DNA from: Candidatus Eiseniibacteriota bacterium
Lineage (GTDB): Bacteria; Eisenbacteria; RBG-16-71-46
Direction: 5' to 3'
Length of the DNA stretch: 64,000 bases
NCBI GenBank assembly: GCA_035712145.1
Contig: DASTBI010000158.1
Location: forward strand, 74,945 to 138,944
This document shows positions 37,494 through 42,630 of the stretch, piece by piece. Under the pieces are notes generated by a model. The model did no database searches. It was not told the origin of the DNA and worked only from the letters and a program-made list of their open reading frames with translations. The translations under genes were made by a program, and so were the position numbers. How positions within the stretch are numbered: position 1 is the first letter of the stretch; the number at the start of each line of letters is the position of its first letter.

Positions 37494-40202
37494 TCAACCG
37501 TTCTTCGCCGCGGGCTCGCGCGGCGCGCTTGGAGGCAGCTTGCGCTCCACCGAGATCACGCGATAGGTGCGATCGCCGAGCGCCACTTCCTCGCCAATGG
37601 TTTTCCCCATCAGCGCCCGGCCTACGGGGGCCTGGAACGAGACCACCTGCTCTCCGTGATGGTGCTCGTCTTCCCCGAGGATCCAGTAAGTCACCAGGTC
37701 CTGATCGCTCTCGAGGACCACCTGGGTGCCAAGGCCGGCGACGCCGTCCGTCTGCTCGGCGTCCTCGACGAAGCGGGCCGTCGCCAGCCGCTTCTGGAGC
37801 GCTTCCACCTGCTTGGTGAGATTGGCCTGCTTGAGCTTGGCGGAGTGGTACTCCGCATTCTCGCGCAGGTCTCCGAGCTCGCGCGCTCGCTGGATGGTCC
37901 GTGGAAGCTCCGTCCGCAGCTCACGTTCCATGCGCTGCACCTCGGTCTTCAGGCGTTCCCAGGTGGCGCGAGTCATCACCGGAAGATCGACGTCCGACTG
38001 CTTTCCCACCTGCTCGAAGAGCTTGCGGGAGCTTCGCTCACGCGCGGCTCGCACCGCGGCGACCGCTTCGGCGAGACCGACCCGCTGTGCCAGGTCGAGG
38101 GCCGGGAAGAGATAACGATCGCTCGAGCGCCACTGCCTCAGCAGCACGGTGAGCTTCAGGCGCTCGTGCTCGGTACAAGGCTGGCCCGCCAGCAGTCGCT
38201 CGAAGGCGCCACCCTCGCTGATCCATCCCAGGACCTTGTCGGCGAGCGAAGGCTTGGGACGCTCCTCGATCAGCGCCAGCGCCGCCCACAGGAGCCGCCA
38301 GGGCTCAGGCCCCGGAGACTGCGACTCCAGCGATTGCTCGATGAGGCGGAGCGCGGCCTGTGGATAACGCGGCGCGTGATCGATCAGCGTGCGACGCAAT
38401 GCCCCGCGGCCGGCCGGATCGAGCGCCTCGCGGCGCCGCGCCGCCAGCTCGCGCACCGAGGAGAAGCGGGAGTCGAGCCCCGACAGAATCGCATCCGCTT
38501 CGACCCCGGCGACGTGGGATGCCTCGAGCAGTGCTTTCTGCTCTTCCTCACCCGAGAGATCGGAGATCGAAAGCCCCTGATCCCACAGCGTCTTGAGCAC
38601 CGCATGCCACTCGGGGATGCGCTCGGGGTACCAGCGAGACACGTAGAGCCCCGCCCGGGCGCGATCGGCGCGATCGGCCTCCTCGTCCAGCATGGCGCGG
38701 AGGAGATAGCGGCCGAAGCGCTGGCCCAGCGCCCTCTCCGAATTTGGATGCTGGGACAGGAACTTACGCATGGTCGCGAGATTGGCCTTCACCGGCTTCC
38801 TTGGCTCGAGGGCGGGCAGCGGGACCTGCTCTTCCTCCCCCGCCGGTGTCTTGCCTTCGGGCTCGAGCCGGTAGTGCTGCTCGAATGCCCGCGCATGGTC
38901 GATGCGCGGGTCCTTCTCCGCCGCCGCCTTGAGCCGCCGGAACGTCGTGGTCCACTCGTTGGCCGGCACGAGGCCGTTCCCCACCAGGAAGAGCTTCAGC
39001 TTTTGCGCGTCCGCCTCGCCCCCCATCGCCACGAGCGCCCGCACCAGGATTTCCGCGGGCTCTTCCTTCCGCAGGCGCTCGAGATCCGCGGGCTGCGTGA
39101 AGCGGAGCAGCCGCAAGTCGTCCTCCGCGAGCGGGGTGAGGCTGCGGCGAGCGGCCGCGTAGGGCATGCGATGGCTGGGCGAGCGAGTGAAGTCGATGAT
39201 CACGTTCTCGGCGTCGTTCGCGGCGACGCGGCCGGCTCCGAACGAGCCGTGAAGCACGGCGCGGCCGGGCGGAAGGACGGCGATCGCATCGTAGCGCTCG
39301 AGCGAGGCAGTCAGAGGTTTGAGATGGTCCGAGAGCCCGCAGAGGGCGAACACCGCGGCCGCGTCCGGGAGCTTCTGTCCGGTGCCCTGGCGGATCGCAT
39401 CGACGACCGCCGCGCGAAACGACTCCGCGGCCGCTGGGCCGCCGGCCGCGAAGGCCTGGCGCACGATCTCTCGCAGCGTCCCTTCGACCTCGCCGGCCTG
39501 CGCCGCGGCCGCGAGCGGTGGGAATGCGACATCGAGCAGCGTCTTCGCTTCCTTGACCGCGCCCTTCGCCGCCACCTGCGGGATCACCTCGATCACGTGC
39601 CGCAGCGCTTCGAGGTCGAGATGCTCGACGAACTCCAGAGCCGCCTCTTCGAGACCGGCGTAGCGACCCTCGGCGGCGAAGCGCGGCGCGAGCTCGGCGA
39701 GCAGCGCGCGGCGATCGCTCGCCTGGCCTGAGTCGCCGAGCCGCACCGCCAGCAGCAATCCCAGCTCGAGATCATCGGGCAGGATCCGCCACGCGCGCCA
39801 CAGCGCGTCGACCCGCTCGGGATCCTTGCGCAGCCCTTCGTGCGCACGCACCAGCAGCCGCGCCCCGGCGGCCGTCTCGTCGAGCTCGAGCGCTCGCTCC
39901 GCCACCGCGGCCAGTGGCTCCCACTGTCTGGACTGCGAAAGCCGGTCGCCGAGAGAGAGCAGGGCCTGGAGCGCGCGCTCTCGCTCGCCGCGAAGCGCGC
40001 ATGCGGCGGCCAGCAGGTAATCCACGGCGGGGCTGGCGCCGGGCTGCTTCAGCCGCGCCGCGCATTCGTCGCGCACGAATGCGGTCTGGTCGTTGGCCGC
40101 CGCCTCGGCGGCCAGCGACTCGAGGGCCGCGCGGGATTCCGGACTGAGCTCGGCATGCTTCTCGCCGCGCAGAATTTCCGGTAGGTCTTCACGAATGGGC
40201 AT
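37494..40202 (-). CDS. 902-aa protein: complete GreA/GreB-like transcript cleavage factor (coiled-coil + FKBP-like domain) at the C-terminus, fused to a ~740-aa helical N-terminal extension
   Basis: C-terminal ~160 aa align along full-length GreA (PVMTRATWERLK...RARELGDLRENAEYHSAK...VISVERK) with the acidic tip D/E conserved. N-terminal region is Ala/Leu/Arg/Glu-rich. Confidence 0.8.
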   Translation of the reverse strand: MPIREDLPEILRGEKHAELSPESRAALESLAAEAAANDQTAFVRDECAARLKQPGASPAVDYLLAAACALRGERERALQALLSLGDRLSQSRQWEPLAAVAERALELDETAAGARLLVRAHEGLRKDPERVDALWRAWRILPDDLELGLLLAVRLGDSGQASDRRALLAELAPRFAAEGRYAGLEEAALEFVEHLDLEALRHVIEVIPQVAAKGAVKEAKTLLDVAFPPLAAAAQAGEVEGTLREIVRQAFAAGGPAAAESFRAAVVDAIRQGTGQKLPDAAAVFALCGLSDHLKPLTASLERYDAIAVLPPGRAVLHGSFGAGRVAANDAENVIIDFTRSPSHRMPYAAARRSLTPLAEDDLRLLRFTQPADLERLRKEEPAEILVRALVAMGGEADAQKLKLFLVGNGLVPANEWTTTFRRLKAAAEKDPRIDHARAFEQHYRLEPEGKTPAGEEEQVPLPALEPRKPVKANLATMRKFLSQHPNSERALGQRFGRYLLRAMLDEEADRADRARAGLYVSRWYPERIPEWHAVLKTLWDQGLSISDLSGEEEQKALLEASHVAGVEADAILSGLDSRFSSVRELAARRREALDPAGRGALRRTLIDHAPRYPQAALRLIEQSLESQSPGPEPWRLLWAALALIEERPKPSLADKVLGWISEGGAFERLLAGQPCTEHERLKLTVLLRQWRSSDRYLFPALDLAQRVGLAEAVAAVRAARERSSRKLFEQVGKQSDVDLPVMTRATWERLKTEVQRMERELRTELPRTIQRARELGDLRENAEYHSAKLKQANLTKQVEALQKRLATARFVEDAEQTDGVAGLGTQVVLESDQDLVTYWILGEDEHHHGEQVVSFQAPVGRALMGKTIGEEVALGDRTYRVISVERKLPPSAPREPAAKNG

Positions 40203-40865: not shown

Positions 40866-41234
40866 GCGACTCTCGAGGACACGCTGGACATCGCTTCGGA
40901 TCTGTGGAGATAATGCGGCCACGCCTTCCGAGGAGACCTGGGAACGGAGAGCCGAAAGGTTCCTGTTCGACCGACGCTCCACGCCGCGGGTGGATCCCCG
41001 CGCTGACCGATTCCATCGCTCGTGAGAATCCGGGCGAAGCGGTCGCGGCTCGATGCGAGCAGGCCGATGATCGTCCACCGGGCCTTGACGATTCCGCCGT
41101 GCTTCGAAACCTGCAACCTGGTCACGGCGAATGAGCGGAAGGTGTGGATCACTGCGTCACGGCGCGCGCACGATGCGCGTCCCATGGCGTACGCATCCCC
41201 AACTACGGAGCCCGCGCCGAATCGCGGGAGTGCC

Positions 41235-42401
41235 ATGAGACCACGTCGTCGCCGTCCCCGAGGTCCTCGTCCCGTTCAAGGAGCGCCGCAAGGCTCCTCG
41301 CCCATGGCCGGCGCGCCCGCCCAGCAGGCGCCACGGCCGGGAGGCGGCCGCCGCCGCCGCCGCTCGCGGCGCAATCGGCCCAACAACAACGCTCCCGCGC
41401 CGTACGGCAGCAACAACAACAACAACGCGGGACCGGCGACGATGTCGGGCCGCCCGCCGCAGAGGCGGCGAGATCGCGGCCGGAACGGCGAGAAGCGTCG
41501 CGGGCTGGAGGTCTTGCGCGATCTGCAGCAGGCCGGTGTCGCTCTCGATCCCACCGAGCGTCTGATCCTCGAGCTGCCTCCGGGTCAGGGCTCGCCGCCC
41601 TACGGAGATCGGCTGACGGGCCGCGCCATCGATCTCATCGCCCCGATCGGACGAGGACAGCGCTGCCTGATCGTTTCGCCTCCCAAGGCCGGCAAGACCC
41701 GGATCCTGCAGGTCATCGCTTCCTCGGTCGCTTTCAATCACCCCGACGTCGGCATCTACGCGCTGCTGGTCGACGAGCGGCCCGAGGAAGTCACCGACTT
41801 CAAGCGCAACACGCCGGCCAACGTGATCGCGGCCTCGAGCGACATGAGCATCGAGGACCACATCGCGACGGCGGAGCACGCCATGGAGGTGGTGGCCACG
41901 CAGGTGCTCGAAGGCAAGGACGTGGTGCTGCTGCTGGATTCGATCACCCGTCTGGCGCGCGCCTACAACGCCGGGTCGGAGGGCAGCGGGCGGACGATGT
42001 CGGGGGGTCTCGACTCCAATGCGATGCAGGCGCCGCGGCAGATCTTCGGCGCCGCGCGCAAGATCGAGGATGGCGGCTCGCTGACCATCATCGGCACGGC
42101 GCTCGTCGACACCGGCTCGCGCATGGACCAGGTCATCTTCGAGGAGTTCAAAGGCACCGGGAACAGCGAGATCTTCCTGTCGCGCGAGCTGGCCGAGCGC
42201 CGCATCTACCCGGCCATCGACATTCCGAAGAGCGGCACGCGGAAGGAGGAAAAACTCTATCCTCCGGAGATCGTGCAGCGCATGCATCTGCTGCGCCGCG
42301 GTCTCGCCGGCATGGCGCCGATCGAGGCGATGACCAAGCTGCTCGAGCTGCTCACGCGCTGGAAGAGCAACGACGAGATCTTCTCGCTGCTGAAGGGCTG
42401 A
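41235..42401 (+). CDS. rho: Transcription termination factor Rho ATPase with Arg/Asn-rich low-complexity N-terminus; canonical cold-shock RNA-binding domain not detected
   Basis: Full Rho ATPase core (PIGRGQRCLIVSPPKAGKT, LLLDSITRLARAYN, IGTALVDTGSRMDQVIFEEFKGTGNSEI, KSGTRKEE). Preferred start ATG 41235 with GGGAG 5 nt upstream. ORF is open from 41022. Confidence 0.7.
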   Translation: MRPRRRRPRGPRPVQGAPQGSSPMAGAPAQQAPRPGGGRRRRRSRRNRPNNNAPAPYGSNNNNNAGPATMSGRPPQRRRDRGRNGEKRRGLEVLRDLQQAGVALDPTERLILELPPGQGSPPYGDRLTGRAIDLIAPIGRGQRCLIVSPPKAGKTRILQVIASSVAFNHPDVGIYALLVDERPEEVTDFKRNTPANVIAASSDMSIEDHIATAEHAMEVVATQVLEGKDVVLLLDSITRLARAYNAGSEGSGRTMSGGLDSNAMQAPRQIFGAARKIEDGGSLTIIGTALVDTGSRMDQVIFEEFKGTGNSEIFLSRELAERRIYPAIDIPKSGTRKEEKLYPPEIVQRMHLLRRGLAGMAPIEAMTKLLELLTRWKSNDEIFSLLKG

Positions 42402-42417: not shown

Positions 42418-42630
42418 ATGGCCGAACGGCGTCTCTATCGATCGCGGCGCGACCGCAAGATCGCCGGAGTCTGCGGCGGCATGGCCCAGTACTGGGGAAT
42501 CGATCCCGTCATCCCGCGTCTCATCTGGGTGGCCTTCGCCCTGGCCGCCGGAGCGGGGTTCCTGGCTTACCTCATCTGCTGGCTGGTGATTCCCAACGAA
42601 CCTGCAGGACAGCCCGCGACCGGAAGCTGA
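42418..42630 (+). CDS. PspC-domain small membrane protein
   Basis: RLYRSRRDRKIAGVCGGMAQYWGIDPVIPRLIWV matches the PspC domain. One TM helix. Confidence 0.65.
   Translation: MAERRLYRSRRDRKIAGVCGGMAQYWGIDPVIPRLIWVAFALAAGAGFLAYLICWLVIPNEPAGQPATGS

Follow-up and report, generated by a model that had tools for sequence, protein, structure and literature searches.

Current models of Rho-dependent transcription termination start from the recognition of rut sites by the OB-fold primary binding site. In the largest survey, a functional Rho is defined by the presence of an RNA-binding domain together with an ATPase domain, all four of the described types keep the cold-shock domain (CSD, the OB-fold in question), and proteins with a single Rho domain are set apart as 'Rho-like' and excluded from the functional class (Moreira et al. 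2024, PMC11347177). According to the same survey, two rho genes occur in 116 of the 2730 genomes surveyed, for which mixed hexamers have been proposed (PMC11347177). Insertions in the N-terminal domain are covered in a 2025 review, which mentions no Rho without that domain (PMC12360218). In the Rho of M. tuberculosis, an Arg/Gly-rich disordered insertion domain is needed for the productive recruitment of structured, GC-rich RNAs, with 1759 Rut sites found when this domain is present and 47 when it is removed (PMC13650167). Here, we describe a rho-type gene of a soil bacterium of Candidatus Eiseniibacteriota (hereafter Eisenbacteria), located on a 64,000-nt stretch of contig DASTBI010000158.1 (the window, to which all positions refer unless a locus is named), whose product combines a Rho motor with a disordered Arg-rich tail and carries neither the helix bundle nor the CSD. 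Literature searches on Eisenbacteria, OB-less Rho and Arg-rich tails found no description of this architecture, the 'Rho-like' supplement of Moreira et al. lying outside their coverage.

The gene occupies positions 41235-42401 of the forward strand, on which all features below lie unless stated otherwise, and comprises 388 codons plus stop. The initial annotation, made from the letters of the window, had proposed an intact Rho ATPase core preceded by an Arg-rich disordered segment in place of helix bundle and CSD, and this was borne out by Pfam, NCBIfam, PDB, custom hidden Markov models (HMMs) and AlphaFold2 alike. Pfam, searched at E<=10, returned PF00006 alone, with PF07497 (Rho_RNA_bind) and PF07498 (Rho_N) not found; the NCBIfam Rho models matched only over profile positions ~140-413, and the part aligned in a PDB sequence search was limited to residues 149-417 of E. 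coli Rho. A profile search for a CSD or other OB-fold had been named beforehand as a test that could overturn the proposal. Starting from the E. coli segments, CSD and helix-bundle HMMs were built iteratively on 270 Rho proteins. Of 150 diverse Rho representatives, the CSD model recognises 127, but it matched 0 of the 120 best homologue clusters of the window protein, and the helix bundle was detected neither in the window Rho nor in its family, be it with Pfam (PF07498) or with the custom model. The possibility that a CSD is concealed in a different frame or in an adjacent open reading frame (ORF), of which the initial annotation had likewise seen no sign between 40866 and 41450, was ruled out: tblastn of E. 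coli Rho residues 1-130 against all frames of the 64-kb window gave nothing above noise, and the CSD HMM found no match in six-frame translations of the window and of the related Eisenbacteria loci. The window holds a single Rho-like gene.

Structure prediction agrees with the profile searches. In the AlphaFold2 model, computed for the monomer with a 50-sequence alignment, residues 1-88 lack secondary structure (pLDDT, the per-residue confidence score, 39-52), the first helix spans residues 90-100 and the remainder is predicted with pLDDT >90. The disordered tail (residues 1-89; 41235-41501) thus stands in for the whole Rho N-terminal domain, i.e. the helix bundle and the OB-fold primary binding site. 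Its composition matches the Arg/Pro/Gly/Asn-rich segment of about 90 residues noted initially, with 23 Arg (26%), 15 Pro, 12 Gly and 10 Asn in 88 residues, a net charge of +22 and only five hydrophobic residues other than Ala. Because of this Arg/Pro/Gly/Asn-rich, hydrophobic-poor composition, the tail, as judged from its sequence, cannot form an OB-fold.

The connector and the RecA-type ATPase/translocase domain (residues 90-388; 41502-42398) are, by comparison, those of a Rho protein. The domain is 53% identical to residues 145-417 of E. coli Rho, the best PDB match has E=3.5e-88, and the top Foldseek matches are all Rho chains, superposed over ~293 columns with a root-mean-square deviation of about 2-2.5 A. 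Homology starts at the connector, where GLEVLRDL corresponds approximately to E. coli residues 128-135. The boundary at about residue 125 suggested by the initial annotation is therefore structurally correct, but its pairing of ERLILE with NKILFENL was wrong, as ERLILE aligns with approximately residues 141-148. The Walker A motif (P-loop) PPKAGKT (residues 149-155; 41679-41699) is invariant in the family and is joined by the catalytic DERPEEV, the Walker B LLDSITR, LARAYN, EEFKGTGN and the Arg finger SGTRKEE, as well as by the loops of the secondary binding site, namely the Q-loop SGGLD and the R-loop DTGSRMD. Three residues of E. coli Rho differ conservatively, with R, S and R in place of K283, T286 and K326. 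Depending on the motif, 114-120 of the 120 family clusters carry Walker A, the catalytic Glu, Walker B, the Q-loop, the R-loop and the Arg finger. With the NCBIfam models the protein scores 375.9 bits for NF006886 (cutoff 315) and 371.6 for TIGR00767, the latter below its cutoff of 509.45.

The tail is organised around three Arg blocks. The first, MRPRRRRPRGPRP (41235-41273), is the most conserved part and is found in the window, in the related loci L001-L005, L007 and L008 and, as MRQRRRRPRGPRP, in L087. The second, together with a short motif, is RRRRRSRRNRPNNNAPAPY (residues 39-57; 41349-41405), in which R41 and R42 are invariant in the 50-sequence alignment and R40, R43, R45, R48, P49, N51, P54, P56 and Y57 are at least 90% conserved; its NRP..N.AP.PY part is restricted to the subclade nearest the window. 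The third, RPPQRRRDRGRNGEKRR (residues 73-89; 41451-41501), directly precedes the first helix, with R73 and R78 at least 90% conserved in the same alignment. Every locus follows this plan of an N-terminal MRPRRRRPRG.RP, a central RRRRRR and an RRRR cluster immediately before G-L-E, while the spacers between the blocks vary in length and composition, such that tails range from 89 residues in the window to ~220 in relatives.

An unusual N-terminus in a single contig could reflect a mis-assembly, a frameshift or a pseudogene, or the missing domain could be encoded by a different frame or an adjacent ORF, and the high-GC, low-complexity region is indeed error-prone, while the mechanically called ORF extends upstream to 41022. 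The conservation of the architecture speaks strongly against this. The family was defined as the 120 best homologue clusters from a 5.8-billion-protein collection. In all 120, which stem from JGI, ENA, NCBI and Logan assemblies and are 326-418 residues long and 72-96% identical, PF00006 is the sole Pfam domain. Nine close loci with 69-87% identity, four of them labelled Candidatus Eisenbacteria, were added by a scan of GTDB species genomes, in which the next best matches had at most 57% identity. The architecture is common to 10 syntenic Candidatus Eisenbacteria loci, some of them on long-read contigs of 1.2-1.7 Mb. The neighbourhood comprises nadE, an OMP gene, B3_4, the gene of a 902-aa GreA-domain protein, pduO, rho, efp, a Met-zincin gene and groESL; its order is retained even on the 1.71-Mb contig, and in some loci the pduO-rho interval carries one inserted gene. 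Over the first 13 codons of rho, the Arg and Pro codons vary synonymously in eight loci while the peptide is kept, and the tail frame is therefore, on the pattern of codon substitution, translated and under purifying selection. The upstream extension of the ORF is, by contrast, not conserved, and a search of all frames of the window and the related loci revealed no CSD. The assembly deletion that had to be considered from the start is excluded by this comparison with relatives (120 independent clusters, 10 syntenic loci, synonymous variation in the tail), and the artefact reading is effectively refuted. The gene starts of P0077 and P0095 are mis-called, since the conserved MRQRRRRPRGPRP is encoded in the same frame 20 codons further upstream (L087:9944-10000); part of the 326-418-aa length spread is consequently a gene-calling artefact.

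The position of the start codon follows from the same alignments. The open frame covers 41022-42401 (459 codons), with its upstream limit in the ORF list at GTG 41022, and homologues begin at ATG 41235 with MRPRRRRPRGPRP, behind a Shine-Dalgarno sequence GGGAG (41226-41230) read 4 nt before the ATG. ATG 41235 is hence, judged from the homologues and the synonymous variation in eight loci, the true start of a 388-aa product. GTG 41022 was rejected as a start, the peptide encoded upstream of ATG 41235 being conserved neither in homologues nor in L087. At the position equivalent to the Shine-Dalgarno sequence, related loci have a purine-rich GGAAGGAA or GGAG.

Upstream of the start lies a 369-nt intergenic region (40866-41234), which includes the non-conserved in-frame extension 41022-41234 and could form a 5' leader. 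A sigma-70-like promoter candidate, TGGACA-18-GATAAT (40885-40914), matches the consensus at 10 of 12 positions, compared with a mean of 0.1 sites in shuffled sequence. The regions upstream of rho are long in all loci (~195 to 617 nt). Across seven aligned loci, the Shine-Dalgarno sequence was the only conserved sequence in them; the fold of the 369-nt region was not significant (z-score -1.64), and an Rfam search of the region gave no match. The long upstream regions and the promoter-like site would fit a regulatory leader like that of E. coli rho. Within the tail-coding part of the mRNA, the sense strand of 41286-41405 contains more C than G, with (C-G)/(C+G) at 0.12-0.28. This rut-like composition may matter for autoregulation, or may merely reflect the Arg, Pro and Asn codons of the tail. 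The second rho codon (41238-41240 in the window; also L001-L005, L007 and L008) is AGA in 8 of 8 loci, and the remaining Arg codons of the tail are all CGN and vary synonymously; the invariant AGA may reflect a constraint on translation initiation.

The initial annotation had regarded the architecture as unusual, which overstated its rarity, since it recurs in several other lineages and, as an extra copy, in Gammaproteobacteria. In a HMMER search of 1.84 billion cluster representatives, in which the window family collapsed to a few entries, P0123 emerged as a sister lineage with a basic tail and no CSD (63% C-terminal-domain identity, bootstrap 73-86). P0126 from Hydrogenedentes has a CSD-less, basic-tailed Rho whose gene start overlaps the glmS stop and which therefore has no room for a CSD. 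P0131, P0132, P0150 and P0200 are likewise CSD-less and basic-tailed, as is P0224, which is encoded on a circular 4.89-Mb genome with merely 135 nt upstream. Pfam and NCBIfam confirmed the CSD-less architecture of these proteins.

Among the more distant, non-Eisenbacteria loci retrieved with the window protein in the GTDB scan, 47 of 71 lacked a CSD in the six-frame HMM scan, 25 of these 47 being Gammaproteobacteria. A CSD-less Rho of ~314-323 aa with the N-terminus MTRKTLSLKVKR was found across L010-L068 in many cultured Gammaproteobacteria, including Vreelandella, Halomonas, Marinobacter, Paraglaciecola, Microbulbifer, Endozoicomonas and other genera. In the complete genome of Vreelandella aquamarina (L053:5893-6855), the gene adjoins a DEAD-box helicase gene and encodes the P-loop PPGSGKT but no LARAYN. 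The tail of this type is short, ~25 aa, with a net charge of +1 to +8 in full-length copies. As every Pseudomonadota in the 2730-genome survey has a CSD-bearing Rho (PMC11347177), these gammaproteobacterial proteins must be second copies. CSD-less relatives also occur in Elusimicrobiota (L072, L051, L044), Omnitrophota (L043, L015, L073) and Planctomycetota. The Elusimicrobiota and Omnitrophota tails are rich in Gly, Gln, His and Arg, reach 157 aa and in some cases contain an RRRRRR block; they represent a further variant in which a disordered tail takes the place of the N-terminal domain. The Eisenbacteria Rho is accordingly one instance of a broader, essentially uncharacterised CSD-less class spread over Hydrogenedentes, Elusimicrobiota, Omnitrophota, Planctomycetota and many cultured Gammaproteobacteria, and its architecture is not unique. 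All CSD-less homologues exceed the NF006886 cutoff, and databases would automatically name each of them 'Rho'.

Within this class, the Eisenbacteria lineage is, on sequence identity, distinct and no closer to the CSD-less paralogues than to canonical Rho: its C-terminal domain is 54.9% identical to the Gamma-type paralogues and 54.2% to canonical Rho, and it forms a clade with 100% support in neighbour-joining trees. PPKAGKT and LARAYN are kept in 100% and 89% of the sampled family sequences, but in 0% of the gammaproteobacterial CSD-less paralogues; more generally, PP[KR].GKT is found in 100% of Eisenbacteria and 0% of the Gamma type, which also lacks a Lys at the position of E. coli K181. 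Membership of the Gamma/Omnitrophota-type clade was rejected on these grounds, with no supported grouping recovered and both the P-loop Lys and LARAYN retained in the Eisenbacteria proteins. Among the 1.84 billion representatives, no CSD-bearing protein had a C-terminal domain more than 59% identical to that of the window Rho, so that recent duplication of a canonical rho can be discounted as the origin of the Eisenbacteria gene. Over the C-terminal domain, members of the lineage are on average 83% identical to one another, as would fit a constrained core gene, and 54% identical to CSD-bearing Rho.

Taken together, the gene most likely encodes a working RNA translocase and terminator that captures RNA electrostatically through six tails, and the reading we favour, at a probability of roughly 0.55, is that this Rho without an N-terminal domain and with a cationic tail is the sole Rho and the termination factor of Eisenbacteria. 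The protein would still form a hexamer, and the six tails, adding up to ~+130 charges per ring, would exit on the face that usually bears the primary binding sites. There, they could form an electrostatic crown that binds nascent RNA, probably structured and GC-rich, irrespective of sequence and passes it on to the central loops of the secondary binding site, after which ATP-driven 5'->3' translocation and termination would proceed as in canonical Rho. The conserved N-terminal 13-mer may in addition serve as a specific docking or RNA-binding peptide, with an RNA element, RNA polymerase or its factors, or the ring itself as possible ligand. Such a protein would engage RNA by a mode different from that of the primary binding site, as the initial annotation had anticipated, and the insertion domain of M. 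tuberculosis Rho is its nearest functional precedent. Independent CSD-less lineages all carry basic (net +7 to +21), hydrophobic-poor tails, compared with a net charge of -2 and 33% hydrophobic residues for the N-terminal domain of E. coli Rho, and on this basis it can be argued that the cationic tail is a functional substitute for the lost domain. The loss would most likely have taken place in the housekeeping rho of an ancestor of the lineage. The syntenic housekeeping context, the strong conservation, the canonical active site and the lack of any closely related CSD-bearing C-terminal domain among the 1.84 billion representatives indirectly support a housekeeping role. The wider proposition, that Eisenbacteria and perhaps Hydrogenedentes and others depend on a single Rho without a primary binding site, with a poly-Arg crown that loads termination and that evolved repeatedly, is a tentative one, with the odds somewhat against it.

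Several observations weigh against the Eisenbacteria protein being a sole, fully competent Rho. Deletion of the first 27 residues of E. coli Rho abolishes RNA binding (cited in PMC11347177), so that loss of the whole N-terminal domain is not trivially tolerated. Moreover, E. coli Rho has a mean C-terminal-domain identity of 61% to the same canonical set to which the Eisenbacteria proteins show 54%, and this difference suggests some acceleration of the sequence. The deep bootstraps of the neighbour-joining trees (0-35) do not resolve a canonical from an old CSD-less origin, and 10 alignment columns hold residues that are common to Eisenbacteria and the other CSD-less clade and rare in CSD-bearing Rho. 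In a further 10 columns, on the other hand, Eisenbacteria agree with CSD-bearing Rho in residues that the other CSD-less clade rarely has, and the columns common to the CSD-less clades could equally reflect convergent adjustment to the loss of the N-terminal domain. With such trees and signature columns of 10 versus 10, the data neither establish a common origin of all CSD-less Rho nor rule one out. Above all, the second copies of Gammaproteobacteria make, by analogy, an accessory role a realistic and serious rival. A canonical, CSD-bearing Rho would then be encoded elsewhere in the genome, and the short form would be a specialised second translocase, acting in mixed hexamers, on particular RNAs or R-loops, or under stress. 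Besides the 25 gammaproteobacterial loci among the 47 without a CSD, from a group in which all surveyed species have a CSD-bearing Rho, the 'Group B' second Rho of Actinomycetota and of the PVC group offers a parallel, as do the 116 genomes with two rho genes and the mixed hexamers proposed for them; the 10 columns held in common with the other CSD-less clade point the same way. Nevertheless, neither the 64-kb window nor ~100 kb of related Eisenbacteria loci yielded a CSD, and none of the CSD-bearing loci recovered with the window protein in the GTDB genome scan is labelled Eisenbacteria. The C-terminal domain is also no closer to the Gamma type than to canonical Rho and keeps the signatures that the Gamma type has lost, and the gene sits in a syntenic housekeeping context. 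These points are all indirect, and on balance we consider an accessory role less likely than the favoured reading, but clearly worth keeping in view.

Considerably less probable is that the protein, though a ring translocase derived from Rho, has lost its role in termination, and that its tail tethers it to the nucleoid (DNA) or to ribosomes or rRNA, or drives condensates, its job being R-loop removal, RNA remodelling or RNA decay. Disordered poly-Arg regions bind any polyanion, those of the Bacteroides thetaiotaomicron Rho drive phase separation (reviewed in PMC12360218), and the primary binding site has been lost together with the YC-specific pocket by which rut recognition is defined. However, Q-loop, R-loop and catalytic residues show the same conservation as in Rho proteins that terminate, and no neighbouring gene suggests another pathway.

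If the favoured reading of a sole, tail-bearing Rho is correct, Rho could function without the OB-fold site; should the wider proposition hold, there would be a second general way for Rho to engage RNA. A strongly conserved motor with a poly-Arg tail in place of this domain, throughout an entire candidate phylum, calls into question the definition of a functional Rho by its RNA-binding domain, both as to the necessity of that domain and as to how RNA is selected. Since CSD-less forms occur in cultured Halomonas/Vreelandella and Marinobacter, the question is testable at the bench now. The proteins also pose an annotation problem: NF006886 names all of them 'transcription termination factor Rho', leaving the missing domain unflagged.

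The surroundings of the gene gave some further observations. On the reverse strand, 37494-40202 encodes the 902-aa protein of the conserved neighbourhood, in which the GreA/GreB N- and C-terminal domains are confined to residues 741-885 behind an extension of ~740 aa; in L001 and L087, too, its gene keeps this place, two genes upstream of rho, and the precomputed Pfam matches there include PF27167 HTH_GRAD. Downstream, a 70-aa PspC-domain membrane protein is encoded at 42418-42630 with the Shine-Dalgarno sequence GAGGAGGGGG, starting 17 nt past the rho stop. This gene, which is probably co-transcribed with rho, is found in L009 but not in L001 or L087. The pduO-rho interval is an insertion hot spot, which in L001 (4448-5632), L003 and L008 holds the gene of a ~394-aa secreted protein at homologous positions and in L004 (2832-4985) that of a Ser/Thr-kinase-TPR protein.

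Compared with the described kinds of Rho, the Eisenbacteria protein has the connector, the RecA-type domain, its motifs and the predicted fold (~2.3 A) in common with canonical Rho ('Type 1', E. coli), but lacks the N-terminal domain (E. coli residues 1 to ~127), and with it the helix bundle, the OB-fold and the RNP1/RNP2 primary binding site. 'Type 2' Rho (M. tuberculosis, M. luteus, Bacteroides) likewise has an Arg/Gly/Asn-rich disordered N-terminal segment and a GC-rich host; there, however, the segment is an insertion between a retained helix bundle and a retained CSD, both of which are replaced by the Eisenbacteria tail. The 'Type 4', 'Group B' or NF041509 paralog_Rho2 proteins are, like the Eisenbacteria Rho, shorter than canonical Rho and without a helix bundle, but keep the CSD, as profile positions 2 to ~75 align with PF07497 in P0133. 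Assignment to NF041509 ('Rho, short form') was accordingly rejected: the model includes the CSD, and the window protein scores 333 bits against a cutoff of 628, over positions 84-357 only. The window Rho has the defining feature of the ATPase-only 'Rho-like' proteins, with only the ATPase detectable among the three Rho domains. These proteins also have no CSD, a basic tail set directly on the connector and the name Rho through NF006886; the Gamma type differs from the Eisenbacteria Rho in belonging to a separate lineage and in its ~25-aa tail, its altered P-loop, its lack of LARAYN and its DEAD-box neighbour in place of a housekeeping context.

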